Shown: positions 1-64,000 of the stretch, piece after piece
Layout: every line of letters begins with the position of its first letter
Position numbering within the stretch: the stretch's first letter is position 1
Assembly (NCBI GenBank): GCA_963729875.1
Contig: CAVSPR010000004.1
Location: 442,046-506,045 of the forward strand
Reading direction: 5' to 3'
Length of the DNA stretch: 64,000 bases
Source of the DNA: an uncultured Acidobacteriota bacterium
Lineage (GTDB): Bacteria; Acidobacteriota; Vicinamibacteria; Fen-336
Program-made: the position numbers and the translations under genes
Notes under the pieces: generated by a model
Databases searched by the model: none
What the model saw: the letters and a program-made list of their open reading frames with translations, nothing else
Told to the model about the DNA's origin: nothing

Positions 1-1121
1 AGGTAGAGGCCGTCCTTGCGGTGCCACTTGCCGGCGGTCGCGTGGGCGAAGCTCGAGAGCTCCTTCGGCCGCCCCTCGCCCCAGAAGAACCCGTGGTCCG
101 AGGCGAGGACGAGGACGGCTCCCCGCGCCTCCGCGAGGGCGCGGTAGGCGCCGAGGAGCGCGTCCACGTGCCGGAAGTAGAGCTCCGGCACCCCGGAGTA
201 GCGCGCGTAGTCCTCCTCCGAGACGGTGGGCTGCCGCGGCGGCGCGAAAGGGGCGAAGGTGTGGCCGATGCTGTCGGTGCCCTCGAAGTACACGATCGCG
301 AGATCGGGCTTCTCCTTCTCGATCCACTCCGTGGCGAGGCGGTGGTAGACCTCCGTCTGCACGAGGATCCGCCGCAGCGCGGTCACGGGGTGGGCGTACG
401 GGTCGGCCTTCTTCTCCCTCTCGAGGCGGAGGTACTCCTCGCGGGAGAGCCAGGGCAGGTAGGCGCGCAGCGCCTCGTCGCCCGTGGCTTCCTCCACCGC
501 GCGCAGGGTGTCCCGGGCCCAGCCTTCGCGCTCGGCGGGGAAGACGACGCCGGGCGGCGGTTCCTTCTCCGAGTACAGGAAGCCGCTGAACCGGTCCGAG
601 ACGAGGAGCCCGTTCACGTGCTCGGCGGGGTAGGTGGCCCACAGGCCGAACGTGGCGCTCGTCCGGCCGGCATAGCCGGCCATGTTCCAAACCGCGGGCG
701 CGCGCCTCTCGTCGCTCGTGATCGGCTCCTTGAGGCCGCTGCCGGGCGAGAAGCGGGTGAAGTCGAGGACCCGGTGCTCGAGCGGCGAGACACCGGTCAC
801 CATGCTCGTCCAGACGATGGGGGAGAGCGGCGGGTGGATCGTCTCGAGCGCTCCGCCGGCCCCCTCCGCCACGAGCCGGGCGAGTTGCGGCATGGCTCCC
901 TTCGCGACGTACTGGTCGAGGAGCTGCCAGTCGGCCCCGTCCAGCCCGACGAAGATCACCGGCCGGCCGTCCCGGGCCAGCCGCTCGATCGCGGGAACGA
1001 CGCCCACGCCCCCATGCGCGGCGGGCTGCGACCGCCCGCCGCGCCACCAGGCGAGCGCGGCCAGGGCCGTGGCCACGCCGAGGGCGGCGATCAGCAGGAC
1101 GCGCGTCTTCGGTCGGGTCAT
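1..1121 (-). CDS. AlkP-superfamily type I phosphodiesterase / nucleotide pyrophosphatase-like protein; C-terminus lies beyond the window start
   Basis: Reverse-strand translation reads MTRPKTRVLLIAALGVATALAALAWW... with VIFVGLDGADW and TSMVTGVSPLEHRVLDF motifs typical of ecto-nucleotide pyrophosphatase / AlkP-core proteins. ATG at ~1119-1121 with an N-terminal signal/TM. Not in the ORF track because it runs off the window. Confidence 0.6.
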   Translation of the reverse strand, partial: MTRPKTRVLLIAALGVATALAALAWWRGGRSQPAAHGGVGVVPAIERLARDGRPVIFVGLDGADWQLLDQYVAKGAMPQLARLVAEGAGGALETIHPPLSPIVWTSMVTGVSPLEHRVLDFTRFSPGSGLKEPITSDERRAPAVWNMAGYAGRTSATFGLWATYPAEHVNGLLVSDRFSGFLYSEKEPPPGVVFPAEREGWARDTLRAVEEATGDEALRAYLPWLSREEYLRLEREKKADPYAHPVTALRRILVQTEVYHRLATEWIEKEKPDLAIVYFEGTDSIGHTFAPFAPPRQPTVSEEDYARYSGVPELYFRHVDALLGAYRALAEARGAVLVLASDHGFFWGEGRPKELSSFAHATAGKWHRKDGLY

Positions 1122-1220
1122 GGCCTCGGGTCGGCGGGAGCCGCGAGCATAAAGGGTGGCCCCCGAAAAGGGAAGGGGCCCCGCCGGAGCGGGGCCCCTT
1201 CCGTCACGACGTCGTGACGG

Positions 1221-4901: not shown

Positions 4902-5471
4902 TCACGCGGGTCGGGACCCCCCGCGCAGCCAGTGGGGGAGCCGCTCGGCGCAGGACGCGCAGAAGTGCTTTCCCCGCGTGTCCACCCGCTCGATGTTGCC
5001 GGCGAAGCTCATGAGGCAGCCGCGGTCCGGGCAGTGCTCGAGGGTCGCGAGGTGCCCGAGCTCGTGGAGGACCTCGGCGATCGCGCGCTCGTCCCGCAGC
5101 TCGGGGTCCGGCGGCAGGCCGTAGAACGAGGGGTCCGTGCGGAGCAGGGAGACGACGCAGGCGCGTCCCCCCTGCCGGGCGAGGCCGAACACGAACGTGA
5201 AGAGGGGGACCGCGATGTCGTCCCCGGCGACGCCGACCACGAGGCGGGTGTCGCTCGACGCCCGGGCCTCGACCGCCTCGAGGAGCGCGTTCGCGTCGAG
5301 CTGGTCGCGGTTGGGGATTCGCCGGAGGGGAAGCTCGGCGCCGGCCAGCACGTGGCAGGCGACCTCCACCTTGCGGCTCAGCCGCGAAGCCAGCCGCTCG
5401 AGCGTGCCCGGCGGCAGCTCCCCGATGGGCAGCAGGTCGACCGCCTCCGCGAGACGGGCCGCCTCGAACAA
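4902..5471 (-). CDS. Archaemetzincin-like (peptidase M54) zinc metalloprotease
   Basis: HELGHLATLEHC fits the HExxHxxGxxH zinc motif, followed by a CxxC pair (CASC) as in archaemetzincins. Confidence 0.55.
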   Translation of the reverse strand: MFEAARLAEAVDLLPIGELPPGTLERLASRLSRKVEVACHVLAGAELPLRRIPNRDQLDANALLEAVEARASSDTRLVVGVAGDDIAVPLFTFVFGLARQGGRACVVSLLRTDPSFYGLPPDPELRDERAIAEVLHELGHLATLEHCPDRGCLMSFAGNIERVDTRGKHFCASCAERLPHWLRGGSRPA

Positions 5472-6858: not shown

Positions 6859-8476
6859 GCCTGGTCTCCCGCGAGGGCCGGGGTGCCCTCGCCCTCTCCC
6901 CGGGTCGTCTCCGCCTTCTCCGGCTGGCGCGCCGGCAGGCGGACGGTGAAGGTGGTGCCGCGGCCCGGCTCCGACTGGACGTCGATCGTCCCGTGGTGCC
7001 CGGTGACGATCCCGTAGACGACGGCGAGACCGAGCCCCACGCCCTTGCCCGCTTCCTTGGTGGTGAAGAACGGCTCGAAGATGCGGTCGAGGTGCTCCTT
7101 CGGGATGCCCCAGCCCGTGTCGGCGATCACGATCCGGACGCCGTCGCCGTCGCCCGCGGCCTCGATCGAGACGCGGCCGTCGGAGGGCGTCGCCTCGAGA
7201 GCGTTCATCGCGAGGGCGAGGATCACCTGCTGGATCTGGGCCGCGTCGACGACGACCTTCGGGAGGTCCGGTGCCACCCGCGTCTCGAGCGTGACGCCGA
7301 GCATCTCGGCCTGGTGCTTGAGCAGCATGCGGCACCGCTCGATCACGGGGGCGAGGTCCTCCTCGGCCAGGCGCGCGCCGGACTGCCGGCTGAACGCGAG
7401 GAGGTTGCGCACGATGTCGCCGCAGCGGCCGGCCTCGGAGTCCACCATCTGCAGGATGCGGTCGGTCTCGGCCGCCTGCTCGGGGGTGGGGGGCGGCGCC
7501 GCCCCGGCCGCGAACTGCCGCCGGAGGAGCCGCGCGTAGGTCTTGATGCCGGCCAGCGGGTTGTTGATCTCGTGGGCCACGACCGCGGCCAGCTTGCCGA
7601 GCGAGGCCATCTTCTCGACCACCACCATCTGGCGGTGCGTCTGCTCGAGCTGGTGCGTCTTCTCCTCGACCCGCTGCTCGAGCGTGCGGTTCAGGCCCTC
7701 CAGCTCCTCGCGGGCCTGCTTGAGGTCGCCCGTCATGTCGTTCCAGGAGCGGGCGAGCCCGCCCATCTCGTCGCTCGAGCGCACGGGGACGCGCGCGGTG
7801 AGGTCCCCCTCGCCGGCCCGCTCCATGGCCTTGCGCAGCCGCTTCACCGGGCGCAGGACGAAGGCCCACAGCATCAGGAAGCTGAGCAGGAGCACCGCAA
7901 TGCCGGTGGCGAAGAGCCCGTACTGCATCTGCCGCTCGGAGGTGGCGAGCACGGCGTCGGCCTGGGCCATCGAGAGCCGCACGTCGAGGATGCCGAGGAC
8001 CCGCTGCGACGCCGGGTGCACGTGGCAGGCCGTGCACTTGGGCTCGTTGTAGATGGGGGTGATGATGCCGAGGACGCGCCCGCCGTTCGACCCCGGGAGC
8101 ATCCGGATGCGGTCCTGGCGCTCGAGGCCCGCCTTGGGCTGCTCGCCCGCGTGGCAGGCGATGCACTCGTCGGAGCGCTTGTCGACGATCGTCCCTTCCT
8201 CGGCGGGGGCGGGAGGAGACGCGGACACGCCCCTCCTTGTTGTAGATGCGGACCCGGTCGACGCCCTCCTGGCCGGCGATGTTCTCGATGATGCGACGCA
8301 CGCCGTCGGCGTCGTTGCTGAGCATGCCGTCGTGGGCGGCTCGGTGGACGGTCTCCGCCACGCGGTCGGCGGAGATGCCGACCAGGTCCTCGAGCTGCGC
8401 GCGCTGGCGGTCGAGGCTCAGCTGGTCGGCGACCCAGAGAATGGCCGCGGCCCCGAGCCCGAGGCCGAGGCCCATG
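6855..8476 (-). CDS. Sensor histidine kinase with a periplasmic domain carrying two CxxCH c-type haem-binding motifs, then TM, HAMP, HisKA and HATPase; frameshifted near 8205-8215 in this sequence
   Basis: Intact frame 6855..8228 contains CIACH and [34 protein letters not shown]-box AHEINNPL and G-boxes DTGWGIP / GLGLAV. The N-terminal 83 aa ([21 protein letters not shown]...[15 protein letters not shown]) lie in another frame from ATG ~8476. Joining them needs one indel in a C/G run. Confidence 0.75.
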
Positions 8477-8543
8477 CGGACCGCGAGGCGCCTCCAGGGC
8501 TGGAGGCGCCTCGCGACGGAGGTAGCGGTTCGCAGCGGCGTGG

Positions 8544-9776: not shown

Positions 9777-9780
9777 GGTG

Positions 9781-19341: not shown

Positions 19342-19647
19342 ATGCCGGTCAGATTCCGAGGAGGCGACGTGGAGCGGAACGAGATCCTCTGGTTCGGCGA
19401 GGACGAGGACATCGAGGACGAGGACGTCGAGGATGACGACTTCGAGGACGATGACTTCGAAGACGACGACGACGAGGAGGAGGAAGACGAGGAGGAGGAA
19501 GAGGACGAGGACATCGAGGATGACGACTTCGAGGACGACGACGAGGAGGAAGACGACGAGGACCGGACGACGACGACGGGGACGGGTTCGACGACGACGA
19601 GGACTGGGACGACGACGAGGAGCTCGAGGACGAGGACCCGGAGGTAG
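19342..19647 (+). CDS. Highly acidic Asp/Glu-rich low-complexity ORF just upstream of lipA; may continue in another frame to 19653
   Basis: Translation [33 protein letters not shown]... A second frame continues the acidic run ([28 protein letters not shown]) to a TGA at ~19651. The opposite strand is poly-Ser and not credible. Confidence 0.3.
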
Positions 19648-19649
19648 AG

Positions 19650-20704: not shown

Positions 20705-21843
20705 CTACTTGCGCAGACGGGACACGACGGCGGCAACGACGTCGGCGGCGTGGGCGACGTCGGAAGCGGTGGTCGAGCGGCCGAGGGAGAGGCGCAGCGA
20801 GGACTGCACGCGCTGCGGGGGAAGGCCCATCGCGCGCAGGACGTGGGACGGCTCGACACCCCCGGCGGCGCAGGCGGCGCCGGTCGAGACCGCGATGCCC
20901 TCGAGGTCCAGGGCGATGACGAGGCCCTCGGCCTCGACGCCCTCGAACGACACGTTCGACGTGTTGGGCAGCCGGGGATCGGTGCCGTTGCGCCGGGCGC
21001 CGGGGATGGCGAGGAGCTTTTCCTCGAGGAGGTCCCGCAGGGCCGCCTGCCGCGCTCGCCTCCTCCGCGAGGCCCTCGCGGGCCAGGTGCGCGGCGGCGC
21101 CGAAGCCGGCGATGCCGGCCACGTTCTCCGTGCCCGCCCGGCGGTTGCGCTCCTGGCCGCCCCCGCGCACGAGCGGGGCCATGGGCGTGCCCCGGCGGAC
21201 GTAGAGACAGCCCACGCCCTTGGGCCCGCAGAGCTTGTGGGCCGAGAGCGTGAGGAGGTCCACGTCGAGCTCCCGCACGTCGACGGGGACCTTGCCCGCG
21301 GCCTGCACCGCGTCGCAGTGGACGAGGGCGCCCCGCGCGCGGGCGAGGCGGGCCGCCTCGGCCACCGGCTGGAGGACGCCCGTCTCGTTGTTCGCCAGCA
21401 TGAGGGACACGAGCGCGGTCCCGTCCTGCACCTTCGCCGCCAGGTCGTCGAGATCGACGATCCCGCCCTCCGAGACCCGCGCGATCTCCACCGGGACGCC
21501 CTCCTCGCGCAGGGCCTTCCCCGTGTGGAGCACGGCGTGGTGCTCGACGGCGCTCGTGACGAGGCCGCGCCGCTCCGCGCGGCGCGCGGGCCAGCACCCC
21601 GCGCAGCGCCATGTTGTCGGACTCGCTGCCGCTCGCGGTGAAGACGATCTCGGCCGGCGAGGCTCCGACGAGGGCCGCCACCCTCGCGCGCGCGTCCTCG
21701 ACCGCGGCGCGGGCCCGCTGGCCGAACCAGTGGAGGCTCGAGGGGTTGCCGTAGTCGTCGCGCAGGAAGGGCAGCATCGCCTCGAGCACGCGGGGGTCGA
21801 CCGGCGTCGTGGCGTTGTGGTCGAGGTAGACGCGGCGGCTCAC
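20705..21843 (-). pseudogene. iscS: Cysteine desulfurase (IscS/NifS family) split over three frames by two single-base indels (~21040-21055 and ~21575-21595)
   Basis: N-terminal VYLDHNATTPVD...SGSESDNMALRGV in one frame; middle HTGKALREEGVPVEI...LSAHKLCGPKGVGCLYVRR...GTENVAGIAGFG in a second; C-terminal NVSFEGVEAEGLVIALDLEGIAVSTGAACAAG...SLRLSLGRSTT in a third. GTG start overlaps the pncB stop. Confidence 0.8.
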
Positions 21844-25073: not shown

Positions 25074-25339
25074 GCGCGGCCGGCCGACCCTCCCACGGCG
25101 ACTGGGACTGCGTGCTCGAGGCCCGGCAGGTCTACGAGGCCGAGCTGGCGGCCGGGCGGCTGCGGGAGGCGGGGATCGAGGCGCGCGTGATCGACCAGAG
25201 CTACCGCCAGGAGCCGGTGCCCAGCGTGCGGTCGTTCTCGATCGTGCGGGTGCTGGTGCCGGCCGAGCGCGCCGCGGAGGCGCGCGAGATCCTGGCGGAG
25301 GCGGGCGGAGCCGCCCCCCGACGACGAGAGCGAGGAGAC

Positions 25340-26552
25340 ATGATCGACCTGGATCTGACCGAAGAGCACGAGGCGCTCGTCGCGACCGCTGAGCGAGTGG
25401 GGCCGGAAGGAGGTCCTCCCGCAGATCCACGACCTCGACCGGGCCCACCGGTTCAACCGCGACTTCCTCCGGCAGATGGCCGACCTGCAGCTGCTCGGCA
25501 TCTGCATCCCCGAGGAGTGGGGGGGCGCGGGCATGGACTACGTGAGCCTCGGCCTCGCCTGCGAGGAGCTCGAGTACGTGGACACCCACCTGCGCGTGAT
25601 CATGTCCGTGCACGTGGGGCTCAACTCGATGACCCTGTGGTGCTGGGGGACGGAGGAGCAGAAGAAGAAGTACCTCGTGCCCCAGGCGAAGGGCGAGAAG
25701 ATCGCGACCTACGGCCTCACCGAGCCGAACGCGGGCTCCGACGCGGTCGGCATCCAGACGACCGCCGTGCGCCGGGGGGACCGCTACGTCCTCAACGGCG
25801 AGAAGATGTGGATCAGCCTCGCCGACGTGGCCGACCACTTCCTGGTGATCGCCTGGACCGACCAGGAAAAGAAGAAGAGGCGCGACCACTCGGGCATGTC
25901 GGCCTTCATCGTCGAGCGCGGCTTCGAGGGCTTCTCGTCCTTCTCGATCAAGGAGAAGTGGGGGATCCTCGCCGGGAACACCGGGGGCTTCTCGATGCAG
26001 GACGTCGAGGTCCCGGTCGAGAACCGGGTGGGGGAGGAGGGCGAGGGCTTCAAGGTCGCGATGTTCGCCCTCGAGAACGGCCGCTACACCGTGGCCTCCG
26101 GCGCGACCGGCCTCGTCCGGGCCTGCCGCGACGCCTCCGTGGCCTACGCGCAGACCCGCAAGACCTTCGGGGTGCCGATCGGCGAGCACCAGCTGGTCAA
26201 GGAGATGATCGCGCAGATGGTCTCCGACTACGACGCGTCGCGCCTGCTCTGGCTGCGCGCCGGCTGGCTCAAGAACGAGGGCCGGCGCAACACGCGCGAG
26301 ACCTCGCTCGCGAAGTGGTTCGCGACGGTGGCGAGCGAGCGCGCAGCCGGCGACGCGGTGCAGATCCACGGCGCGAACGGCTACTCCGACGAGTACCCGG
26401 TCGGCCGCTTCTACCGCAACTGCAAGGCAGCGGTCATCTACGAGGGCAGCCGCGAGGTCCACAAGCTCATGCAGGCCGACTACGCACTCGGCTACCGCCA
26501 GGACAAGCCTCGGCGGGTCGAGCTGCCGGCGTACAAGGCGGCCGGCAGGTAG
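25340..26552 (+). CDS. Acyl-CoA dehydrogenase; single-base frameshift at ~25398-25402; possible in-frame N-terminal DUF2007-like extension from ~25070
   Basis: [20 protein letters not shown] in one frame, then [10 protein letters not shown]...[15 protein letters not shown]...[11 protein letters not shown]...[33 protein letters not shown] in the frame of ORF 25476..26552. Confidence 0.8.
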
Positions 26553-29800: not shown

Positions 29801-29810
29801 GGAGGCGGAG

Positions 29811-33975: not shown

Positions 33976-33985
33976 GAGAGGAGCC

Positions 33986-38079: not shown

Positions 38080-38989
<910 letters not shown>

Positions 38990-38999: not shown

Positions 39000-40266
39000 G
39001 TGCTCCGGGTCGGCCTGACCGGTGGGATCGCCTGCGGGAAGTCCCACGTCCTGCGGCGGCTGGCCGCTCACGGCTTCCCGACCCTGGACCTCGACGCCGT
39101 CGCGCGGGAGGTCACGGCCCCGGGGAGCCCCGCCGTCGCCGAGATCGCCGAGGCCCTCGGCCCCGGCCTCGTGGGGAACGGACGGCGCGCTCGACCGGGC
39201 TTCTCTCGCGGCGGTGGTGTTCGCGGACCCCGCGGCACGGGCGCGGCTCAACGCCATCGTCCACCCCCGGGTGCGCGCCGCCGAGGCCCTCTGGGCGGGC
39301 CGGCTCGGCGGCCGGCCGGACGCGGTCCTGGTGACCGACGCCGCCCTCCTCGTCGAGGCGGGCGCTCACCTGCGGTTCGACCGCCTGGTCGTCGTGCACT
39401 GCGACCCGCGGCTGCAGCTCGAGCGATTGCAGGCCCGCGACGGGCTCGACGAGCGCGCCGCCCGCGCGCGGCTCGAGGCCCAGATGCCGCTCCCGGAGAA
39501 GCGGGCCTTCGCACACTTCGAGGTGGACACGTCCGGCTCCGTCGCGCAGACGGAGCAGTCGGCGGACGCGCTCGCGGAGGCCCTCGCCGGCCTCGTACGC
39601 GGGCGACGCCTCCCGCGCGAGGAGGGCCTGGCCACGCTGCTCGGAGGCCTCGTGCACGGCCCCGTGGAAGGCCCGCGCGGCCTCTCGCCGTCGTCCCTCC
39701 TCCTGGCCGCGGTCGAGGCGGGGGGCCTCGAGATGGAGGCCCTCGCGCGCCGGCTCTCGCCGCCGGCCGCCGGGCCGTGGTACCGGACGGCGGCCGAGGC
39801 GGAGCCCGGCGCCTCCGCGGCCGGCCTCGCCGTCGCCCTGGCCGCCTGGGCCCTGTGCCGCGGCCTCGCCGACCCGCCGTTCCTCGCGGCGGCCGCGGGC
39901 TCGGTCTCGCGCCTCACCCACGCCGACCCCGTGGCCCGGGCGGAGGCCTGCCTCGTGGCGCTCGTCGCGCAGGAGGTGGCGCTCGCCGGCGGGGCGACGG
40001 CCGGCGTCGAGGCGGACGCGGCGCGGCTGGGGTCGCTCGCCGCCCGCTTCGGGGGTGCTTTGCCGTCGCGACAGCTGGACCCGGTGTGGGCCGCGGTGCG
40101 GCGGCACCCCGCAGGCCCCGCCGCGGCCCGCGCCGACTGCGAGCGCGAGGGCGGCGACGGCGCGCTCGCGGGAGCCCTCGCCGGCCTCGGGGCCGCGGTC
40201 GAGCCGTCACCCCGCGCCGCGTCCTTGCGGGCGATGCTCGAGGCGCTGGCGCCGCCGGCGGCCTGA
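39000..40266 (+). CDS. coaE: Dephospho-CoA kinase with a ~210-aa Ala-rich C-terminal extension; frameshift at ~39176-39185
   Basis: MLRVGLTGGIACGKSHV P-loop, then (other frame) DGALDRASLAAVVFADPAARARLNAIVHPRV. The extension to 40266 keeps strong GC3 bias, so it is probably coding. Confidence 0.6.
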
Positions 40267-41481: not shown

Positions 41482-42451
41482 TAGATCATCTCGGTCTTCC
41501 AGAGGTCGTGCAGGTGCAGCACGCCCTCGATCCGGCCCTCCTCGTCCGTGACCAGGAGGGAGGTGATCTTGCGCGTCTCCAGGAGGTCGAGGGCGCGCGT
41601 GGCGAGCTCGCGGCGGCCCACCAGCACGGGGTCGCGGGTCATGCACTCGGCGGCGGTGCGGTCGAGGAGAGCGTAGCCGTGGCGCTCCATCTGCCGCCGC
41701 AGGTCGCCGTCCGAGATCACCCCGAGCAGCTTCCCGTCCTCCTCGGCGACGGTGGTGAGCCCGAGGCGCTTCCTGGTCATCTCGAACAGGACGTCCTTCA
41801 TCCGTCGTGCCCGGGGCCACGCGGGGGACGGCGTCACCGGTGTGCATGAGGTCCTCGACCCGGAGCAGCTTCTTGCCGAGGCGGCCGCCGGGGTGCAGCA
41901 CGGCGAAGTCGTCCACGGTGAAGCCCCGCCTCTCGAGCAGCGCCATGGCGAGCGCGTCGCCCATGGCGAGGGCGGCGGTGGTCGAGGCGGTGGGGGCGAG
42001 GCCGAGGGGGCACGCCTCGGCGCGGATGGACACGTCGAGGTGGACGTCGGCGGCCTGGGCGAGGGGCGAGCGGGGGTTGCCGGTGAGGGCGACGACGGCC
42101 GAGCCCAGCCGCTTGACCCAGGGCAGCGAGGGCCAGGATCTCCTCCGTGTCGCCGCTGTTCGAGACGGCGAGGAGCACGTCCCCCTTCACGATGCGGCCG
42201 AGGTCGCCGTGGATCGCCTCGGCGGGGTGGAGGAAGAGCGAGGGGCTGCCGGTCGAGGCGAGCGTGGCGGAGATCTTCTGGGCGATGATCCCGCTCTTGC
42301 CCATGCCGGTGGCCACCACGCGGCCGGTGCAGGCGAAGAGCGTCTCCACGGCCCGGTCGAAGCTCTCGTCGAGGCGCGGGATCAGCGCGCGGATCGCCTC
42401 CGCCTCGGTCTCCAGCACCTTGCGCGCGGTCTCGCGGGGCATCGGGCCCAT
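41481..42451 (-). pseudogene. kpsF: Arabinose-5-phosphate isomerase (KpsF/GutQ; SIS + tandem CBS) split over three frames by two or more indels
   Basis: SIS N-terminus VVATGMGKSGIIAQKISATLASTGSPSLFLHP...VLLAVSNSGDTEEI (ORF 41834..42451); SIS C-terminus ...FTVDDFAVLHPGGRLGKKL (frame of ORF 40294..42033); CBS pair ...VISDGDLRR...VTDEEGRIEGVLHLHDL (ORF 41481..41837). Confidence 0.7.
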
Positions 42452-42455: not shown

Positions 42456-44958
<2,503 letters not shown>

Positions 44959-44963: not shown

Positions 44964-45771
44964 CGGTCCTTCCCTTCTCGGGGCGAAGGAGCGCGCGCAC
45001 GCGCTCGAGGTCCTCGGGAGTGTCCACCGCGACGCCGCCCTCCCCGTCCAACGGCACGACGCGGATCCTCATGCCGTGGTGCAGGGCGCGGAGCTGCTCG
45101 AGCCCCTCGGCCTCCTCGAGCGGCGAGCGGGGGAGCGAGGCGAAGCGCAGGAGGGCCTCGCGCCGGTACGCGTAGAGGCCCACGTGCTTGCGCGCCAGGC
45201 CGCGCGCGACCGCCGCCTCCGCCGCCGCGCGCAGGTCGGCGCCCTTCCCGAGGCGCGCGTGGGGGATCGGGCTGCGCGAGAAGTAGAGGGCGTCGCCCCC
45301 GGCGTCGACCACCACCTTGACCACGGACGGGGCGAGCATCTCCTCGACCGAGCGGAGGGGAGCGAGAGCGTCGCCATCGGGAGCCCGGGCTCTTCGAGCG
45401 AGCGCCCCGGCCGCCGCGTCGATCCCCGCCGGGTCGAGCATCGGCTCGTCGCCCTGCACGTTCACCACGATCTCGGCCTCGAGGGCCCGGGCCACCTCGG
45501 CGAGGCGGTCGGTCCCGGTCGGGTGGTCGGGCGAGGTGAGGACCGCCTCCCCGCCGAAGCCGCGGACGACCGAGGCGATGCGCTCGTCGTCGGTCGCAAC
45601 GACCACCCGGTCCGGCATCCGGGCCGCGCGCGCACGCTCGTACACCCGCTGGATCATGGTCTTCCCGTGGATCACCGAGAGGGGCTTCCCCGGCAGCCGT
45701 GTGGAGGCGAAGCGCGCGGGGATGATGGCGACGATGGCCAAGCTTGGTCGGGGCCCTCGTGAACATCGCAT
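44959..45771 (-). CDS. kdsB: 3-deoxy-manno-octulosonate cytidylyltransferase (CMP-Kdo synthetase)
   Basis: [21 protein letters not shown]...NVQGDEPML matches the KdsB family; 270 aa. Confidence 0.85.
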
Positions 45772-48174: not shown

Positions 48175-50367
48175 GCGCGAGGCCTCCGCGAAGGCGCGGG
48201 GGCCGGAAGCGCAGCTCCACCGAGCTGCGGCCCCGCGGCACCGGGACCGTCCACCCACCGGGGACGCGCCCCAGTGCCGCCGGCCGGCCGTCGACCGTCC
48301 CCTCCCATCCCCGCGCCCAACCCTCGCGCACGACGAGCGTGGCCGGGCGGTCCGACTCGACGATGGCCAGGATTCGCCCGGTCGAGCGGTGGGCCTCGAC
48401 CACCCGCCCGGCGGGCGGATCACCGCCGGGCGGAACGGCCGTCACCTCGAGCAGCGGTGAGGGCCGCCTCGTCTCGTACACGCGCACCCGGAGCGGGGCC
48501 ACGCGGGCCGGCGCGAGCGTCCGCTCGAGGGCGAGGTCCGGGTGGCGCAGCTCCGTGGCGCTGAGCACCCACCGGACGCCGGCGAGCTGCAGGCGCGGGG
48601 CGATCCGGTCGAGGTCCCGGCAGGAGGCCTCCTCCGGCGAAAGCACCTGCTCCTCGGGCACGAGCATGGTGAGGTCGGGGCTGAGCGCGGTGGCGACCCC
48701 GAAGCGCAGGTTCGAGAACGGCGTGAGGGTCTCCTGGAGGCCGGCGAAGGTCCACAGCTCGTGGTCCCCGCCGCGCGCGTGGCGGGCGGCCACGTAGGCG
48801 GGGCTTTCGTCGAGCGAGCAGGTGAAGACGCGGCCCTCGCGCAGGGACGGCAGCGCCGCGGAGAGCTCCCGGGAGACCCCGAAGAACGGGACCGGGACCA
48901 TGGGGTTGAGCCCCGCCCCGGCGCGGAGCAGGTCGGCGGCGACCACGACCACGGCCAGTCCGACCCCGATGCGGGGGGCGAGCTTTCCGAGGAGGACGGC
49001 GAGCGCGGTCCCGCAGAGCAGGAGCGCGAGGAAGCCGCCGGCGGCCGCGTCGGCCAGGACCCGTTCCAGCATCCGCGCCCTCGCGGACGCGTCGAGGCCA
49101 GGGGGGAAGAACCGCGCGCCGAAGGCCGCCAGCGGTCCCGGCAGGAGGGCCGGGAGCGTCGCGGAGAGCGCGAGGACCGCTCCCAGCGCACCCGCCACGG
49201 CGCCGAGCCGCCTCCAGGCGGCGCGCGACGGCTCGCCGGCGAGCGCGGCGAGGCCCAGGGATGCCAGGAGGGACACGGCGAAGTGGACGGTGAAGAACGC
49301 CTTCACCGGGAAGCGCAGGACGCGCAGCGCCGGGACCGCGTCGACGAGCGGGGCGAGGCCCGCGAAGCGCCCGAGCGACAGGACGAGCGCGACCAGGGCC
49401 AGGGCCGCGAGCGGGCGGCTCATCCTCCGGCCCGACGTCGCCCCGACGAGGCACAGCGAGAGGGCCGCCGCGCCGAGGTAGAGGCTCAGCACGTAGGGGA
49501 AGCCCCGGGGAAGAAGTTCTGGCCCCACCACTCGTTGACGAGGTTGCTCGTGTTCCCGTACAGCCCGCCCACGACGACCTGGAGGAGCGTGAAGGGGTGG
49601 ACGGAGTGGGCGAGGACCACGTCGGTGGGCAGCCCGCGCCCGCGGGCGCTGCCCTCCACCTGGCCCGCGACCAGGACGAGGACCGGCGCCGCGATCGCGG
49701 CGCCGAGCGCCAGCGAGCCCGCGAGCGCGAGCCGGTCCGCCGCCCGGGCCCGGGCGAGACGCCGCCAGCCCAGGACCAGCCCGATCGCCACGGCCTGTCC
49801 GACGACCTCGACGCCCGTCGTCGAGAGGCCGATCGCCAGGAGGAGAGCGGTGAGGGCCACGGCGCGGCGGTCGCTTCCCGGACCGTCCCGCGCGAGCACG
49901 AGGACCAGGAGCGGGGCCCAGGCCGCGGCCTCGACGTACACGTAGAGGTTCAGGCTCGAGAGCAGGAAGCCGCCGAGCGCGTAGACGAGCGCCCCCCCGG
50001 CCGCCGCGACGGCGGGGAGGCCCAGGCCGCGGGCCATCGCGAGGAAGGTGACCGCGGCGAGCGGGACGTGCAGGGCGAGTACCAGCGAGATGCCGACCTC
50101 GTCGGGTCGCACCAACTGGAGGAGGTCGAGGGGGTATCCCACGGCGGGCAGGGACAGGGGGACACCCTCGTGGACCAGGGGGTTCCACAGCCGCACCTCG
50201 CCCGCCCGCAGGCCCTCGAGCGCGTAGCGTCGCAGGGGCAGGAACTGCATCGCGAGATCGCGGAAGTAGAGGGACGCGCCGGAGAGGGCCCCGCGCAGGA
50301 AGGGCAGGAAGGCAACCAGCGCGACGAGGGCGGCGGGGAGCGCCCGGCGTCCTCGGGTCGGGCCCAC
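48104..50367 (-). CDS. YfhO-family GT-C membrane protein, paralogue 2; frameshift at ~49495-49505 (C run)
   Basis: N-terminal half in ORF 49486..50682 (...LYFRDLAMQFLPLRRY...NEWWGQNFFPG), C-terminal half in ORF 48104..50188 (GFPYVLSLYLG...ARGWEGTVDGRPAALGRVPGGWTVPVPRGRSSVELRFRP). GTG start ~50367, 9 nt after the acetyltransferase stop. Confidence 0.65.
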
Positions 50368-55264: not shown

Positions 55265-57113
55265 ATGCCCGTCAAGCTCGGAGAACTGCTGCTGAAGGAG
55301 AACATGGTGTCTCCGCAGCAGCTCCAGGACGCGCTCAACCACCAGAAGATGAACGGGGGCAAGCTCGGCAAGGCCTTCGTCAGCCTGGGATTCGTGAAGG
55401 ACGAGGAGATCACCAGCCTTCTGTCGCGCCAGTACGGTGTCCCGTCGATCAACCTCGACCACTTCGAGGTCGATCCCGCGATCATCAAGATCATCCCCGC
55501 CGAGACGGCCCGGAAGTACCAGGTCCTGCCGCTGTCGCGCTCCGGCGCGACCCTCACGATCGCCATGGCCGACCCCACGAACGTGTTCGCCATGGACGAC
55601 ATCAAGTTCATGACGGGCTACAACGTGGAGCCGGTCGTGGCCTCGGAGAGCGCGCTCGAGGACGCGATCGAGCGCTACTACGGGTCGACCCGCTCGCTGG
55701 AGCTTCGGCGGGGGCACGGCGCGCCCGGCGGGGCGGCACGGGAGCCGGGCGGCAGCCCGGCCGGCCTCAAGGAGGTCATGGAGGGGCCGACCCTGAGCGT
55801 CGACGACATGGCCGCGATCGGCGGCCTGTCCGAGATCGACCTCGACTCGATGGGCGAGGCGGAGGCCGACGTCGAGACCGTCAAGAGCGAAGACGACGAG
55901 ATCGACCTCGGCAACCTGGCCAAGTCGGCCGACGCCGCGCCGGTCGTCAAGCTGACGAACGTGCTGCTCGTCGACTCGCTCAAGCGGGGGGCCTCGGACA
56001 TCCACATCGAGCCCTACGAGAAGGAGTTCCGGGTCCGCTTCCGGATCGACGGCATCCTGTACAACGTGATGGCGCTGCCGCATGAAGCTGCGGGACCCGC
56101 TCATCTCGCGCATCAAGATCATGGCCAAGCTGGACATCGCCGAGAAGCGCCTGCCCCAGGACGGGCGCATCAAGATCAAGATGAAGGTCGAGGACCGCAG
56201 CCGCGACCTCGACTTCCGCGTCTCCTGCCTGCCCACCCTGTGGGGCGAGAAGATCGTCATGCGGCTGCTCGACAAGTCGAAGCTGATGCTCGACATGACG
56301 AAGCTGGGCTTCGAGCCGCACTCGCTCGAGCGGTTCAAGCTCGCGATCTCCAAGCCCTACGGCATCGTCCTGGTGACCGGGCCGACCGGGTCGGGCAAGA
56401 CGAACACGCTCTACTCGGCGATCGCCGCGCTCAACAAGCCCGACACCAACATCATGACCGCCGAGGACCCGGTCGAGTTCAACCTGCCGGGGATCAACCA
56501 GGTCCAGATCAGGGACAACATCGGCCTCAACTTCGCGGCGGCGCTGCGCTCGTTCCTGCGCCAGGACCCGAACATCATCCTGGTCGGCGAGATCCGCGAC
56601 TACGAGACCGCGGAGATCGCGGTCAAGGCGGCCCTCACCGGGCACCTCGTGCTCTCGACCCTGCACACCAACGACGCGCCCTCCACCGTGTCGCGCATGG
56701 TCAACATGGGCATCGAGCCGTTCCTGGTCGGCACCGCGGTGAACCTGATCCAGGCCCAGCGCCTGGTGCGCCGCGTCTGCTCCAAGTGCAAGGTCGACGT
56801 CGCCGCCGACGTGCCGGCCAAGACGCTGATCGACATCGGCTTCACGCCCGAGCAGATCGGCACCTTCAAGGTCATGAAGGGCAAGGGTTGCGGGACCTGC
56901 AACGGCACCGGCTACAAGGGCCGGGTGGGCCTCTACGAGGTGATGGAGATCACCGAGGGGATCCGCGACCTGATCATGGTCGGGGCCACCGCGGTCGAGA
57001 TCAAGAGAAAGGCCCTCGAGGAGGGGATGCTCACCCTGCGCATGAGCGGCCTCGAGAAGATCAGAAACGGCGTGACGACCGTCGAGGAGGTCCTCCGGGA
57101 GACGGTTCTCTAG
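55265..57113 (+). CDS. pilB: Type IV pilus assembly ATPase PilB; single inserted base at ~56081
   Basis: N-terminal GSPII_E_N domain (ORF 55265..); the C-terminal ATPase continues in ORF 56082..57113 (GPTGSGKT Walker A, tetracysteine CSKC...CGTCNGTG). Junction ...ILYNVMALP|(M)KLRDPLISRIKIM. Confidence 0.85.
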
Positions 57114-57159
57114 CGCGACCGGGGGCTCCGGCCGTCGCGTCGGGATAAGGGGGTAGGGC

Positions 57160-58383
57160 GTGGCCGTCAGCCTTCACCAGTTGCTCAAGACCATGACGGA
57201 GATGGGGGGGACCGACCTCCACGTCACCACCAACTCCGCGCCGCAGATCCGCGTCGACGGCAAGCTGCGCCCGCTCGACCTGCCGCCGCTGTCGCCGGTC
57301 GAGACCAAGCAGCTCGCCTACAGCGTGCTGACCGACGCGCAGAAGCACCGCTTCGAGGAGAACCTCGAGCTCGACTTCAGCTTCGGCATCAAGGGCCTGG
57401 CCCGCTTCCGCGCGAACGTCTTCATGCAGCGCGGCGCGGTGGCGGCGGTCTACCGCACGATCCCCTACGAGATCCGCGGCTTCCGGGAGCTGGGGCTGCC
57501 CCCGGTGGTGTCCACGATCTGCGACAAGCCGCGCGGGCTGGTCCTGGTGACCGGGCCCACCGGCTCCGGCAAGTCGACGACGCTCGCCGCCATGCTCGAC
57601 AAGATCAACTCCGAGCGCCACGAGCACATGCTCACCATCGAGGACCCGATCGAGTACCTGCACCAGCACAAGAAGTGCGTGGTCAACCAGCGCGAGGTCC
57701 ACGCCGACACCCACTCCTTCGCCAACGCGCTGCGTGCCGCGCTGCGCGAGGACCCCGACGTCGTGCTGATCGGTGAGATGCGCGACCTGGAGACGATCGA
57801 GTCCGCCCTGCGCATCGCGGAGACCGGCCACTTCACCTTCGCCACCCTGCACACGAACTCGGCCTCCCAGACCATCAACCGCATCATCGACGTCTTCCCC
57901 GCGCACCAGCAGTCGCAGGTCCGGGCGCAGCTGTCGCTCGTGCTGGAGGGCATCATGTGCCAGGCCCTCCTCCCGCGCGCGAGCGGCAGCGGGCGCGCGA
58001 TGGCCATGGAGATCCTGGTCCCGAACCCCGCCATCCGCAACCTGATCCGGGAGGACAAGATCCACCAGATCTACTCCTCGATGCAGACCGGCCAGGAGAA
58101 GTACGGGATGCAGACCTTCAACCAGTCCCTGGCCAGCCTGTACTTCGCCAAGCAGATCACTCTGCAGACCGCCCTCGGCATCAGCTCGAACCCCGAGGAG
58201 CTGCAGGACATGATCAACCGCGGCGCCGGTCTCGCCACCCCGCAGACCGGGGGCCGCCGCCCGTGCGGCCGGCAGGCCGCTAGCTCCGGGAGGAAAAGAT
58301 GCCTGCTTTCGTCTGGAAGGGCAAGACGCGCGACGGCAAGGTCGTCTCCGGCGAGCGGGTCGCCGACAACAAGGAAGCGGTGA
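57160..58383 (+). CDS. pilT: Twitching-motility ATPase PilT; annotated frame overlaps pilC by 85 nt, true stop probably TAG at ~58280 after an indel near 58248-58253
   Basis: MAVSLHQLLKTMTEMGGTDLHVT..., GPTGSGKST Walker A, AIRNLIREDK. An alternative frame after the GGGGG run ends at a TAG 16 nt before the pilC RBS/ATG. Confidence 0.85.
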   Translation: MAVSLHQLLKTMTEMGGTDLHVTTNSAPQIRVDGKLRPLDLPPLSPVETKQLAYSVLTDAQKHRFEENLELDFSFGIKGLARFRANVFMQRGAVAAVYRTIPYEIRGFRELGLPPVVSTICDKPRGLVLVTGPTGSGKSTTLAAMLDKINSERHEHMLTIEDPIEYLHQHKKCVVNQREVHADTHSFANALRAALREDPDVVLIGEMRDLETIESALRIAETGHFTFATLHTNSASQTINRIIDVFPAHQQSQVRAQLSLVLEGIMCQALLPRASGSGRAMAMEILVPNPAIRNLIREDKIHQIYSSMQTGQEKYGMQTFNQSLASLYFAKQITLQTALGISSNPEELQDMINRGAGLATPQTGGRRPCGRQAASSGRKRCLLSSGRARRATARSSPASGSPTTRKR

Positions 58384-59502
58384 TGGCGCTGCTGCGGCGC
58401 GACCAGATCCTGGTCTCGTCGGTCAAGGAGAAGGGGCGCGAGATCGCCCTGCCGAAGTTCGGTGGGGGCGTGCCGGCCAAGGACCTCGCCATCTTCACCC
58501 GGCAGTTCTCGGTCATGATCGACGCCGGCCTGCCCCTCGTCCAGTGCCTCGAGATCCTGGGCGGCCAGCAGGAGAACAAGACCTTCGCCAAGGTCCTCCA
58601 GCAGACCCGCATGGACGTGGAGGGCGGGGCGAGCCTGGCCGACGCGATGCGCAAGCACCCCAAGGCCTTCGACGACCTCTTCACCAACATGATCGCGGCG
58701 GGCGAGGCGGGCGGCATCCTCGACACCATCCTCAAGCGCCTGGCGACCTACATCGAGAAGAACGTCAAGCTGAAGGCCCAGGTCAAGGGCGCCATGGTCT
58801 ACCCGATCTCGGTCATCAGCATCGCCGGCATCGTCATCAGCGTCATCCTCTGGAAGGTCATCCCCACCTTCGCCGCGATGTTCGCGGGCCTCGGCGCCGA
58901 GCTGCCGCTGCCCACGCGGTTCGTGATCGCGCTCTCCAACTGGCTGATCCGGCTGCTGCCCTTCCTCGTCGTGGGCGGCATCCTGGGAGTGATGGGGTTC
59001 AGGCGGTACTACGCCACCTACTGGCGGCCGGCGCGTCGTCGACAAGGTGGTGATCAACGCGCCCATCTTCGGCACCCTGATGCGGAAGATCGCCGTGGCC
59101 CGCTTCTGCCGCACCCTCTCGACCCTCATCTCCTCCGGCGTGCCCATCCTCGACGGCCTGGAGATCACCGCGCGGACGGCCGGCAACGCGATCGTCGAGG
59201 ACGCCATCATGGCCGTCCGCAAGGGGGTGGAGAGCGGCCTCACCATGGCCCAGCCCCTCAAGGAGACCGGGGTCTTCCCCGCGATGGTCGTCCAGATGAT
59301 CGGGGTCGGCGAGCAGACGGGCGCCCTCGACGCGATGCTCAGCAAGATCGCCGACTTCTACGAGGAGGAGGTGGACCAGGCGGTGGCCAACCTGCTCACC
59401 CTGATGGAGCCGGTCATGATCCTGTTCCTCGGCGTCACCGTCGGCGGCATCATCATCGCGATGTACCTGCCGCTGTTCGACCTCATCAGCAAGCTCTCCT
59501 GA
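58299..59502 (+). CDS. pilC: Type IV pilus inner-membrane platform protein PilC; frameshift at ~59025-59035
   Basis: N-terminal half in ORF 58299.. (MPAFVWKGKTRDGK...GSPII_F domain 1). C-terminal half in ORF 59047..59502 (VINAPIFGTLMRKIAVARFCRTLSTLISSGVPIL...). RBS GGAGGAAAAG precedes the ATG. Confidence 0.85.
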
Positions 59503-59652
59503 TGCCCCGCCCGGCGCCACGGCGCCGGGCGGAAGGACGATGAACACGCTCTCACCGAGGCTCTGGGGCAGGGACGGCCGGAGTATGGTGCGCTCGCGGG
59601 GAAGCGGTCGAGAGGGGGCACCGTCCAGGTCCGCCCGCGCTTCGCGCGGGCG

Positions 59653-61311: not shown

Positions 61312-61411
61312 CCGGACCCGCCCGGAAGGGTGCGCCACCCGCGCTTGAGGGATGCGCGACCGAGAGGGTAGCATTCGTGCGGTCACGGCACAGAGAGGAG
61401 GGGCGCGCGAG

Positions 61412-62782: not shown

Positions 62783-62789
62783 CCCGTTG

Positions 62790-63209
62790 ACAATTCTCGT
62801 CCGGGGCCGGCTCGATTCCGACACCAGTACACGTTGAAAAAGCTGGACTTATGCCCTGCGAGGCACATGGCAGGCGGATTGCTTGCAGTAAGGAATAAGG
62901 TATGAGTGCCTCCATTGAAAGGAAGGCTGAGCAGATGAAAAAGCAAAAGGGTTTCACCCTGATCGAGCTGCTGATCGTCGTGGCGATCATCGGCATCATC
63001 GCGGCGATCGCGATCCCGAGCCTCCTCCGGGCGCGCGTGTCGGCCAACGAATCGGCCACCATCGGCGACATCCGGACGGTCATTTCGGGGCAGGCTGCCT
63101 ACCAGTCCGCCAACGGCGGCTGGTACGCGGGCAACTTCACGTGCTTGAGCGTCCCGAGCGGCGGCGGCTGCATTCCCAACTACCTCACCACCGCGCCGAC
63201 GTTCCTCGA
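62790..63209 (+). repeat. Tandem duplication unit 1 (pilA promoter + 5' ~270 nt of pilA); ~98% identical to 63581-64000
   Basis: Direct alignment at an offset of 791 bp shows only a handful of substitutions across the promoter, RBS and first ~90 codons. Confidence 0.8.
62868..62883 (+). promoter_or_regulatory. Sigma54 (RpoN) -24/-12 promoter TGGCAG-N5-TTGCT for pilA1
   Basis: TGGCAGGCGGATTGCT matches the TGGCAC-N5-TTGCW consensus. PilR (a sigma54 activator) is encoded immediately upstream. Confidence 0.65.
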
Positions 63210-63474
63210 CAGCGCGATCACCGGTCTGCAGGCCAAGTCCGGCTACAACCGCACCTTCTCCCCTGGCAACACCGTCACCGTGAACACCCTGGTTTCCGGC
63301 ACCGCCAGCGTCGCGAGCTTCGCCTATGCCTCGACCCCGGTGACCTCCGGCCAGACGGGCGTCCGCGGGTTCGCCGGGGACGCGAGCGGCGTCCTCTGCT
63401 TCAACGCGAACGGCTCGGCGTTCCCGATCACCACCGGCGCGCTCGATCTCGCCGCCTGCAACATCCTGCAGTAA
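62935..63474 (+). CDS. pilA: Type IV major pilin PilA, copy 1
   Basis: MKKQKGFTLIELLIVVAIIGIIAAIAIPSL prepilin leader/methylation motif with Glu at +5, C-terminal Cys pair. RBS AGGAAGG upstream. Confidence 0.9.
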   Translation: MKKQKGFTLIELLIVVAIIGIIAAIAIPSLLRARVSANESATIGDIRTVISGQAAYQSANGGWYAGNFTCLSVPSGGGCIPNYLTTAPTFLDSAITGLQAKSGYNRTFSPGNTVTVNTLVSGTASVASFAYASTPVTSGQTGVRGFAGDASGVLCFNANGSAFPITTGALDLAACNILQ

Positions 63475-63677: not shown

Positions 63678-63725
63678 TACCACACAGGCAGCCATGCGAT
63701 GCTATGGCGAAAGGAAGGTTGAGCA

Positions 63726-64000
63726 GATGAAGAAGCAGAAGGGCTTCACCCTGATCGAGCTGCTGATCGTCGTGGCGATCATCGGCATCATCGCGGCGAT
63801 CGCGATCCCGAGCCTCCTCCGGGCGCGCGTGTCGGCCAACGAGTCGGCCACCATCGGCGACATCCGGACGGTCATTTCGGGGCAGGCTGCCTACCAGTCC
63901 GCCAACGGCGGCTGGTACGCGGGCAACATCACGTGCCTGAGCGTCCCGAGCGGCGGGGGCTGCATTCCCAACTACCTCAACACCGCGCCGACGTTCCTCG
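63726..64000 (+). CDS. pilA: Type IV pilin PilA, copy 2; 3' end beyond the window
   Basis: MKKQKGFTLIELLIVVAIIGIIAAIAIPSLLRARVSANESATIGDIRTVISGQAAYQSANGGWYAGNITCLSVPSGGGCIPNYLNTAPTF differs from copy 1 at only two or three residues so far. Confidence 0.85.

Follow-up and report, generated by a model that had tools for sequence, protein, structure and literature searches.

Results

In the deposited sequence of the window, that is, the whole 64-kb stretch of DNA that was analyzed, the reading frames of 15 genes are broken at 23 sites, 19 times by the insertion and four times by the deletion of a single base (Table 1). About a quarter of the genes is affected (15 of approximately 60), and the mean density is about one frame break per 2.8 kb. 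The frame breaks are real in the deposited sequence, and thus an earlier observation made on this DNA is confirmed. Most probably, however, they are consensus errors of a long-read, probably metagenome-derived, assembly and not features of the organism's genome; on the sequence evidence described below we assign a probability of about 0.93 to this explanation. The window has a G+C content of 71%, and its nearest kin are Vicinamibacteria MAGs. The matches listed in scans of genome and metagenome collections were relatives with at most 89% protein identity.

Four independent checks were applied, namely, a frame map, Pfam coordinates, frameshift-aware tblastn, and nucleotide alignments. The GC3-based Viterbi frame map, together with the table of open frames, revealed frame switches on the same strand without a stop codon at the switch. 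The coordinates of Pfam profiles continue from frame to frame in nine genes, and tblastn with proteins from related contigs revealed that single proteins of relatives match two window frames in succession. At the nucleotide level, each event for which a comparison was possible showed up as a 1-nt gap in all, or all but very few, of the relatives that cover it. All 13 genes that had been named in the initial annotation are broken, either at the positions given there or at most about 20 nt away, and a frameshift-aware alignment of the kind recommended there yielded tblastn junctions at 13 positions. Two further broken genes were absent from that list, i.e., the DUF2007 gene with a break in its tail (~25310) and kdsB (+1 at 45399, -1 at 45357).

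Table 1. Single-base frame breaks in the window, with the covering relatives that lack each event and the tblastn junctions (number of loci in brackets).
Gene	Position	Strand	Event	Frame	Relatives	tblastn junction (loci)
Sensor histidine kinase (gene ~6858-8540)	8206..8216	-	+1 insertion, C-rich run CCCGCCCCCGCC	-1 to -0		
Acidic D/E-rich small ORF upstream of lipA	19560..19572	+	1-nt deletion, probably CCC to CC	+1 to +0		
iscS-like cysteine desulfurase (Aminotran_5)	21050..21066	-	+1 insertion	-0 to -2		21054 (4)
iscS-like cysteine desulfurase	21576..21589	-	+1 insertion	-1 to -0		21577 (6)
DUF2007 small gene, C-terminal tail	25300..25320	+	net +1	+2 to +0		
Acyl-CoA dehydrogenase	25388..25392	+	+1 insertion ACCG[C]TG, 17 codons past ATG	+2 to +0	gap in 7/7	
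folD	38706..38709	+	+1 insertion, GG to GGG	+1 to +2		38702 (29)
coaE	39174..39180	+	+1 insertion	+0 to +1		39177 (35)
kpsF (arabinose-5-phosphate isomerase)	41802..41806	-	+1 insertion, ACG[G]ATG on coding strand		gap in 47/48	41804 (66)
kpsF	42124..42128	-	+1 insertion, CTCG[C]TG on coding strand		gap in 46/46	42131 (72)
kdsA	42929..42932	-	+1 insertion		gap in 29/29	42921 (27)
kdsA	43040..43046	-	+1 insertion, CATCG[G]CG on coding strand		gap in 27/29	43044 (16)
kdsA	43113..43115	-	+1 insertion, GAGC[G]CTC on coding strand		gap in 28/28	43112 (11)
pyrG, C-terminal tail	43329..43357 (approximate)	-	net +1, by comparison with L001 and L002			
pyrG	44245..44251	-	+1 insertion, GG to GGG		gap in 15/16	
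pyrG	44269..44271	-	+1 insertion, CCCG[G]AG on coding strand		gap in 16/16	
pyrG	44853..44858	-	+1 insertion, GTC[G]CAG or GTCGC[A]GAT		gap in 15/15	44839 (42)
kdsB	45355..45359	-	1-nt deletion in C run, C5 to C4; resets frame broken at 45399		14/14	
kdsB	45398..45400	-	+1 insertion		14/14	
Large membrane protein ('YfhO-2')	49503..49510	-	1-nt deletion in run CCCCGGGG	-1 to -2		49510 (3)
pilB	56078..56081	+	+1 insertion CTGCC[G]CATG	+2 to +0	3/3	56090 (3)
pilT, 3' end	58249..58253	+	1-nt deletion in G run, G6 to G5			
pilC	59013..59030	+	+1 insertion	+0 to +1		

Housekeeping genes between 38.7 and 45.4 kb

The THF_DHG_CYH_C profile of folD is matched from 1-89 in frame +1 and from 88-156 in frame +2, with the switch at about 38710, and the nucleotide alignments agree with the tblastn junction. 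The profile of coaE is divided in the same way (3-57 in +0, 59-179 in +1; switch at about 39177). The domains of kpsF are distributed over three frames (SIS 2-74, SIS 74-131, and CBS), the SIS domain being split at profile position 74. The DAHP_synth_1 match of kdsA is in four pieces; at the insertion at 42929..42932 it passes from 81-124 to 124-257 in a different frame. At least two breaks had been noticed for kpsF and at least three for kdsA, and exactly these numbers, two and three, were found with the Pfam pieces as well as with the gaps in the relatives.

Four events were found in pyrG. The CTP_synth_N profile is matched from 1-38 and then from 32-230 in different frames, followed by the GATase domain. 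As had been noticed before, two of the events are close together, but the pair is situated at about 44250 and 44270 and not at 44225-44260; together the two insertions form one net +2 tblastn junction at 44260 (48 loci). The break in the C-terminal tail can be placed only approximately, as this tail varies from relative to relative. Because of this break, the conserved overlap of the pyrG stop codon with the start codon of kdsA (TGA/GTG) falls out of frame, the TGA is missed, and the reading frame continues into kdsA. In kdsB an insertion and a deletion are only 42 nt apart, 14 codons are garbled, and the ORF stays open. The DNA between the two indels still codes for a conserved peptide in the ancestral frame, and repair raises the identity of KdsB to the protein of the nearest relative, L001, from 81.8 to 84.9%.

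Genes in the remaining parts of the window

A 1-nt gap in the sensor kinase gene is present at 8211-8213 in both L168 and L169, and the rejoined protein of 539 aa covers 98% of 539-aa homologues with 88% identity. The acidic composition of the small ORF upstream of lipA runs on in frame +0 and ends at a TGA that overlaps the GTG start codon of lipA. This overlap is also found in three relatives (L162, L165, and L166), and the deletion at about 19567 takes the conserved GTGA out of frame. The Aminotran_5 profile of the iscS-like gene is spread over three frames (1-83, 86-273, and 277-368, with switches at about 21577 and 21054), and the two breaks that had been claimed for this gene are borne out by the Pfam pieces and the tblastn junctions. 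Frame +2 of the DUF2007 gene lacks a stop codon, and only frame +0 leads to the conserved ATGA in which the stop codon of this gene overlaps the start codon of the acyl-CoA dehydrogenase gene. The rejoined acyl-CoA dehydrogenase has 403 aa and covers 99-100% of homologues of 400-402 aa, with identities of up to 94%.

For the large membrane protein, a Pfam search with the 'YfhO' fragments gave no match, and the split of this gene is seen from the relatives alone: proteins of about 765-790 aa from L002, L087, L108, and L140 match its two frames consecutively. Three type IV pilus genes are affected. The T2SSE profile of pilB is matched from 2-55 and from 54-370 in different frames, with the switch at about 56081. 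The break in pilC falls between two T2SSF domains, which lie in frames +0 and +1 according to Pfam and the translation of the junction. The pilT ORF runs about 100 nt past its stop codon into pilC, while the conserved C-terminal end 'RPAGR*' is located in the -1 frame; the site is covered by one relative (L002). This out-of-frame end indicates that pilT, which had been listed only as probably affected, is indeed broken.

Several candidate frameshifts from the GC3 map were rejected. The 3' extension of coaE (39547-40263) is ordinary, as CoaE proteins of 340-430 aa from relatives align in one frame. The region 33391-34455 consists of two separate genes (about 209 and 158 aa), the region 13.4-15.4 kb of hycI and the hydrogenase large subunit gene, and the region 16.8-18.4 kb of a cNMP-binding gene and a Fer4_22 gene, not iscS. 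Alignment noise explains the weak clusters of gaps at 39999, 40066, and 40247, and the switches at 29747 and 36155 are gene boundaries.

State of the genes apart from the breaks

Wherever a comparison was possible, the break turned out to be private to the window, and the genes are intact in up to 72 related contigs; no lesion was shared with sister lineages among these up to 72 relatives. The relatives used for the comparison have nucleotide identities of 75-90%. In the ancestral frame, the substitutions in comparison to L001 concentrate at codon position 3, also downstream of the breaks. The differences at codon positions 1, 2, and 3 amount to 0.5, 2.1, and 15.9% for pyrG, and to 0, 0, and 31.6% for kdsA. 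An even distribution of substitutions over the codon positions, the pattern of relaxed selection, was not seen past the breaks. Eleven one-base edits suffice to give back full-length pyrG, kdsA, and kpsF with 92-94% identity and without gaps: the repaired PyrG aligns over 529 aa with 93.2% identity and no gaps, and the values for the repaired KdsA and KpsF are 93.8 and 92.4%. Signs of secondary decay were not found, i.e., the repaired ORFs contain no stop codons, larger deletions are absent, and only 1-nt indels were seen.

Indel spectrum and clustering

Insertions outnumber deletions 19 to 4. The textbook picture of Nanopore errors is the deletion in homopolymers, and the excess of insertions departs from that picture. 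It had been proposed that many of the indels sit in G/C homopolymers. This holds for the deletions, all four of which shortened runs of 3-6 nt (background probability of a run of at least 3 nt, 0.15), but not for the insertions: seven of the 14 with a resolved base (50%) are adjacent to an identical base, versus a background of 45%, and thus these 14 show no homopolymer enrichment. Several insertions turn GG into GCG or CC into CGC. Inspection of the insertion sites revealed heterogeneous contexts and no convincing shared motif. Three insertions are located in or beside AGCGAG. The inserted base is a G on the coding strand in eight to nine of the 14 resolved cases (counted by hand), which is not significant (p of about 0.1 by a rough estimate), and a plus-strand bias was not observed either.

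The events are clustered over the window (chi-square test, p = 1.6e-4). Thirteen of the 23 events are situated between 38.7 and 45.4 kb, about one per 0.5 kb; 2.4 would be expected in this interval, which was picked after seeing the data (p = 1.6e-6). A uniform error process does not account for the clustering.

Discussion

Origin of the frame breaks

Consensus indel error is the best explanation, because the indels are private, the genes are otherwise intact, and related long-read contigs behave alike. An NCBI/ENA record contains the exact products of the window, including a truncated PilB of 343 aa, and places them on one contig of 1,269,529 nt. For a lineage of uncultured Vicinamibacteria, such a length (1.27 Mb) is typical of, and suggests, a long-read assembly, the platform being judged from contig size alone. 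Three related contigs have names that look like the output of long-read assemblers (L164, 'ctg251887l'; L168 and L169, 'contig_N'), and each has its own, different private frame-breaking indels at a similar density. L164 differs from L165, to which it is 99.77% identical, by five one-base insertions and no single-base deletion in 10.8 kb, and its gene calls are broken; L168 has three private insertions in nrfD, and L169 has several private indels. It has been reported that Nanopore errors are mostly indels and that pseudogene counts are inflated in long-read MAGs, most at low coverage (PMC8103633). The authors of a soil MAG catalogue, who used Flye and a single round of Medaka, likewise acknowledge leftover Nanopore-associated errors (PMC12313526).

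We infer that the indels originated during sequencing or assembly. Single bases would have been wrongly added (19 cases) or lost from short G/C runs (four cases) when the consensus was built, and gene callers would then divide every such gene into pieces that lie in different frames. The local clustering may reflect a local fall in consensus quality, for example due to low depth, or due to reads of co-occurring related strains that were mixed into conserved housekeeping genes.

Alternatively, the indels could be real and mark a mutator or a declining lineage with very recent frameshifts and young pseudogenes. The breaks are present in the deposited sequence, after all, and a truncated PilB stands in the public record. 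The kdsB deletion follows its insertion after 42 nt, as selection acting on a real mutation could yield, and three +1 events return the original frame in kdsA and also in pyrG (the insertions upstream of the tail event). However, the out-of-frame stretches between the insertions of pyrG and kdsA reach 585 nt in length, and therefore a 'restored' frame would not bring function back. pyrG, folD, coaE, and kdsA are normally indispensable, and a real origin would mean that these four genes and kpsF, pilB, pilT, and pilC are all affected together, with ancestral frames that are free of nonsense codons, larger deletions, and a relaxed substitution pattern, and with no lesion common to any relative. 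That each related long-read assembly has different private indels fits a technical origin. A real origin is thus very unlikely, and the earlier view that an artefact, not pseudogenisation, is responsible is supported by the private indels, the bias toward codon position 3, the repairability by one-base edits, and the essential genes that are affected.

Real extra bases might also be rescued by recoding, that is, by +1 ribosomal frameshifting, transcriptional slippage, or editing, and a single mechanism would indeed need events of one sign, as seen for 19 of the 23. Yet the four -1 deletions would call for a second mechanism, two sites in pyrG are only 20 nt apart, and inspection of the sites revealed no common slippery or stimulatory motif. 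Known programmed frameshifts are conserved, whereas the orthologues in up to 72 relatives are single uninterrupted ORFs. Such a rescue is hardly credible, and there is next to no chance that essential genes like pyrG, kdsA, and folD are expressed via pervasive, motif-independent +1 recoding or correction at the RNA level. It is equally far-fetched that there are no frameshifts at all and that the apparent fragments are spurious ORFs of the long kind in which all six frames abound at 71% G+C. In the window, 268 ORFs reach 60 aa or more, many of them long and overlapping in alternative frames, and some switches in the GC3 map are mere gene boundaries, but the continuity of Pfam profiles in nine genes, the proteins of relatives that extend over two frames, and the directly visible 1-nt gaps refute this explanation.

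Consequences for the use of the contig

The finding bears on data quality and not on biology. Without correction, the contig would yield about 35 gene fragments for 15 genes. False 'pseudogenes' would appear in central metabolism and among the genes for type IV pili, pyrG and kdsA would falsely look like a read-through fusion, and KdsB would have a garbled stretch of 14 residues that is invisible to gene callers. Therefore, polishing or frameshift-aware annotation is needed before the 1.27-Mb contig is used for pangenome studies, metabolic reconstruction, or selection analysis, and the related long-read contigs L164, L168, and L169 should be treated with like caution. The insertion-heavy, only partly homopolymer-linked, and locally clustered spectrum may be of interest for benchmarking long-read consensus building on high-G+C metagenomes.

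Comparison with known systems

The breaks resemble the residual indels of long-read assemblies (Nanopore or PacBio) in that they are single-base events, are private to one assembly, split genes, inflate the counts of genes and pseudogenes, and are regionally uneven. Further similarities are the deletions in G/C runs and the like behavior of L164, L168, and L169. In contrast to that class of errors, insertions dominate in the window by 19 to 4, and one half of those with a resolved base do not extend a homopolymer. Mycobacterium leprae and recent endosymbionts have pseudogene-rich genomes that are under reductive evolution. Many genes with frameshift interruptions are a common feature of such genomes, as exemplified by M. 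leprae, and of the window, but the latter has single-base lesions only, the signatures of purifying selection are intact in the ancestral frames, genes of central metabolism are affected, and no lesion is shared with relatives. The bacterial prfB gene is an example of programmed +1 ribosomal frameshifting, and such sites have a conserved motif and are themselves kept across orthologues. As in prfB, one extra base has to be skipped to obtain the full protein; in contrast to prfB, the sites in the window have neither motif nor conservation, and there are up to four events per gene.

Single-base events break the reading frames of 15 genes

Since third codon positions in the window have a G+C content of 0.9-1.0 (71% overall), coding frames are readable from composition alone. 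The gene map and a list of frame switches on the same strand without a stop codon at the switch were obtained from a GC3-based six-frame Viterbi map and the open-frame table. The closest relatives among the matches listed are MAGs of Vicinamibacteria (Acidobacteriota) and soil or sediment metagenome contigs. Alignments with two related public loci gave 87.9% nucleotide identity for L001 (window 45740-40290) and 84-88% for L002 across the pil and kds/pyrG regions.

In total, 23 single-base events, 19 insertions (+1) and 4 deletions (-1), break 15 genes, a rate of about 3.6e-4 per base. Single Pfam domains run on from one frame into another (see table), and the notion that there are no frameshifts, merely spurious ORFs in high-G+C DNA, is directly refuted by these profile coordinates and the alignments. 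Frameshift-aware tblastn with proteins from 160 related loci as queries, a check proposed in the initial annotation, reproduced the junctions at 38-45 kb (11-72 supporting loci each) and both iscS junctions (4-6 loci). In nucleotide alignments, events appeared as one-base gaps in nearly all covering relatives (47/48, 46/46, 29/29, 27/29, 28/28, 15/16, 16/16 and 15/15). The initial annotation, made from the sequence alone, had claimed frameshifts across conserved genes; this is confirmed and slightly extended, as the DUF2007 gene and kdsB are also broken.

Broken genes, one candidate and neighbouring features in the window (frames +0/+1/+2 and -0/-1/-2)
Feature	Position (strand)	Break	Evidence
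Peptidase_M54 gene	5337-5349 (-), candidate site	+1 ~5346, -1 ~5337 (candidate pair)	
Sensor kinase	6858-8540 (-)	C-rich run 8206-8216	-1 and -0 pieces rejoin; one-base gap in L168 and L169 alignments
nrfD	8547-9780 (-)		
Acidic ORF	19342-19652 (+)	~19567	D/E-rich reading carries on in +0
lipA	19649-20527 (+)		
iscS-like desulfurase		~21577, ~21054	Aminotran_5 1-83, 86-273, 277-368, three frames
DUF2007 gene	25103-25342 (+)	+1 near 25310	ATGA overlap reached only after shift
Acyl-CoA dehydrogenase	25340-26552 (+)	25390	base missing from 7/7 relatives
pilM to pilQ cluster	28092-33348 (+)		
folD		~38710	THF_DHG_CYH_C 1-89 in +1, 88-156 in +2
coaE	39009-40263 (+)	~39177	Pfam profile 3-57 in +0, 59-179 in +1
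kpsF		~42126, ~41804	SIS 2-74 and 74-131 + CBS, three frames
kdsA		43114, 43045, 42931	DAHP_synth_1 in four pieces
pyrG		44855, 44270, 44250, and a fourth (see text)	CTP_synth_N 1-38 and 32-230, + GATase
kdsB		+1 at 45399, -1 at 45357	14/14 relatives
'YfhO-2' (large membrane protein)		CCCCGGGG run, 49503-49510	frame -1 then -2 matched consecutively by 765-790-aa proteins of four relatives
pilBTC cluster	55266-63474 (+)		
pilB		~56081	T2SSE 2-55 and 54-370
pilT		G5 run 58249-58253	C-terminal 'RPAGR*' in -1 frame
pilC		~59025	two T2SSF domains, one in +0, other in +1

The rejoined sensor kinase has 539 aa and matches homologues of the same length with 98% coverage and 88% identity, and the rejoined acyl-CoA dehydrogenase (403 aa) covers 99-100% of 400-402-aa homologues with identities of up to 94%. 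When corrected, the acidic ORF stops at a TGA that overlaps the GTG start of lipA, the same arrangement that relatives have. The stop codon of pyrG (TGA) overlaps the start of kdsA (GTG) in relatives; its position in the window is one frame off, the fourth pyrG break, and therefore pyrG would read through into kdsA. Similarly, the conserved 'RPAGR*' terminus of PilT, at a site covered by one relative, lies in another frame, and therefore the pilT ORF overruns into pilC. The frameshifts already named for these genes and for 'YfhO-2' thus hold.

Other frame switches turned out to be ordinary. The switch at 33.4-34.5 kb separates two genes, several more are plain gene boundaries, and coaE owes its long 3' part to an extension typical of the lineage. 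CoaE proteins of this lineage measure about 340-430 aa, and their dephospho-CoA kinase domain is followed by a conserved C-terminal extension of about 200 residues; the Pfam match to ADP-ribosylglycohydrolase is weak and sub-threshold (E = 0.0014).

Error spectrum and clustering

The initial annotation had placed many events in G/C homopolymers. This is true for the deletions, all four of which fall in runs of 3-6 bases (counted before deletion; background probability of a base lying in a run of at least three, 0.15), but not for the insertions with a resolvable base, of which 7/14 adjoin an identical base versus a 45% background. Several of the other 7/14 split GG into GCG or CC into CGC. Non-homopolymer insertions lie at 44853-44858, 43113-43115, 45398-45400, 56078-56081, 42124-42128 and 25388-92; four of this class are such splits, and three lie within, or generate, the hexamer AGCGAG. 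From sequence context, a systematic bias of the basecaller or of the consensus in G+C-rich DNA could underlie these patterns. Apart from what the high G+C content of the genome entails, the events showed no significant strand or base bias.

The events are clustered (chi-square p = 1.6e-4, 8-kb bins). Between 38.7 and 45.4 kb, 13 events were found versus 2.4 expected, and p = 1.6e-6 overstates the significance because the interval was picked after the data had been seen. The clustering would be explained by low local depth, or by reads of co-occurring related strains having mixed into conserved housekeeping genes. The window sequence at 44855 resembles a blend of L001-type (GTC-CAG) and L002-type (GTCGC-G) alleles.

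Assembly errors versus real mutations

No event is shared with any of the relatives compared, and relatives at 75-90% identity are plentiful. Comparison with L001 revealed no decay of the broken genes: all segments that follow a break still have their differences concentrated at third codon positions when read in the ancestral frame (codon positions 1/2/3: pyrG 0.5/2.1/15.9%, kdsA 0/0/31.6%). With ten bases deleted and one added, pyrG is restored (529 aa aligned without a gap, 93.2% identity), as are kdsA (93.8%) and kpsF (92.4%), and the KdsB identity rises from 81.8% to 84.9%. The genes struck include pyrG, folD, coaE and kdsA, which are normally not dispensable together. The exact window proteins, including a truncated PilB fragment of 343 aa, are recorded (NCBI, ENA) together on one 1,269,529-nt contig, and for an uncultured soil-type acidobacterium a contig of megabase size suggests a long-read assembly. 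These observations support the initial interpretation: judged by sequence comparison, the frame breaks most probably represent consensus indel errors, an assembly-quality issue and no biological feature (probability about 0.93).

The same observations speak against real, recent pseudogenisation, which is very improbable. The strongest point in its favour is the compensated kdsB pair, which scrambles 14 codons and leaves the ORF open. However, the DNA between both indels, read in the ancestral frame, still codes for the conserved peptide, and paired errors of this kind could plausibly arise from local misalignment while the consensus is built. The Peptidase_M54 gene contains a candidate further pair, altering three codons compared to both L168 and L169, for which real substitutions are equally possible. 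Recoding at the shift sites is more improbable still, because inspection of the sites showed no common motif, the shifts are not conserved in orthologues, and four events have the opposite sign.

Neighbouring genes

The periplasmic part of the sensor kinase contains two CxxCH motifs (ECIACH and CTACH) and weak Mcp40H-20_sensor and Cytochrome_C7 matches. The gene adjoins an NrfD/4Fe-4S (polysulfide-reductase-like) gene pair and a sigma-54 response regulator; together, this suggests a haem-based redox sensor. The acidic ORF (about 100 aa) directly upstream of lipA has no Pfam family. Its stop overlaps the lipA start (GTGA), an arrangement kept in L161, L162 and L165-L167, and its protein ranges from 66 to 113 aa across relatives. 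The DUF2007 gene, joined by ATGA to the acyl-CoA dehydrogenase (JGI label: non-decarboxylating glutaryl-CoA dehydrogenase), is found in L164-L167 and missing from L161 and L162. Type IV pilus genes form two clusters, one with pilM, pilN, pilO, a 188-aa gene and the pilQ secretin, the other with pilB, pilT, pilC, ORF 59653-61311, a sigma-54 response regulator (probable pilR) and a probable pilin. The neighbours of pilBTC in L002 differ from those in the window, and therefore synteny is not conserved there.

Comparison with related contigs of probable long-read origin

Three related public contigs bear names in the style of long-read assemblers. L164 ('ctg251887l') has five one-base insertions and zero single-base deletions in 10.8 kb compared to the 99.77% identical L165 (sites L164:971-7771), and its gene calls are fragmented. 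A three-way alignment of the window with L168 and L169, both with 'contig_N' names, revealed three private insertions of L168 in nrfD (window-equivalent 9429, 9779 and 9859) and several private indels of L169 (window-equivalent 6415, 6825, 6841 and 10939), the gene calls of which are also truncated. Genes fragmented in these three contigs encode or include Pyridoxal_deC, lipA, NAPRTase, pilM, nrfD and a sigma-54 response regulator. A separate private indel set per assembly is the pattern that technical error predicts and shared ancestry does not. Because related contigs carry their own private indels, the problem is general to long-read assemblies of this lineage rather than peculiar to the window, which calls for caution when this contig and its long-read relatives are annotated. 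Indels have been described as the main error type of Nanopore sequencing and as the cause of surplus pseudogenes in MAGs from long reads, above all where coverage is low (PMC8103633). Residual Nanopore-associated errors have also been acknowledged for a large catalogue of soil MAGs that relied on Flye and a single round of Medaka (PMC12313526).
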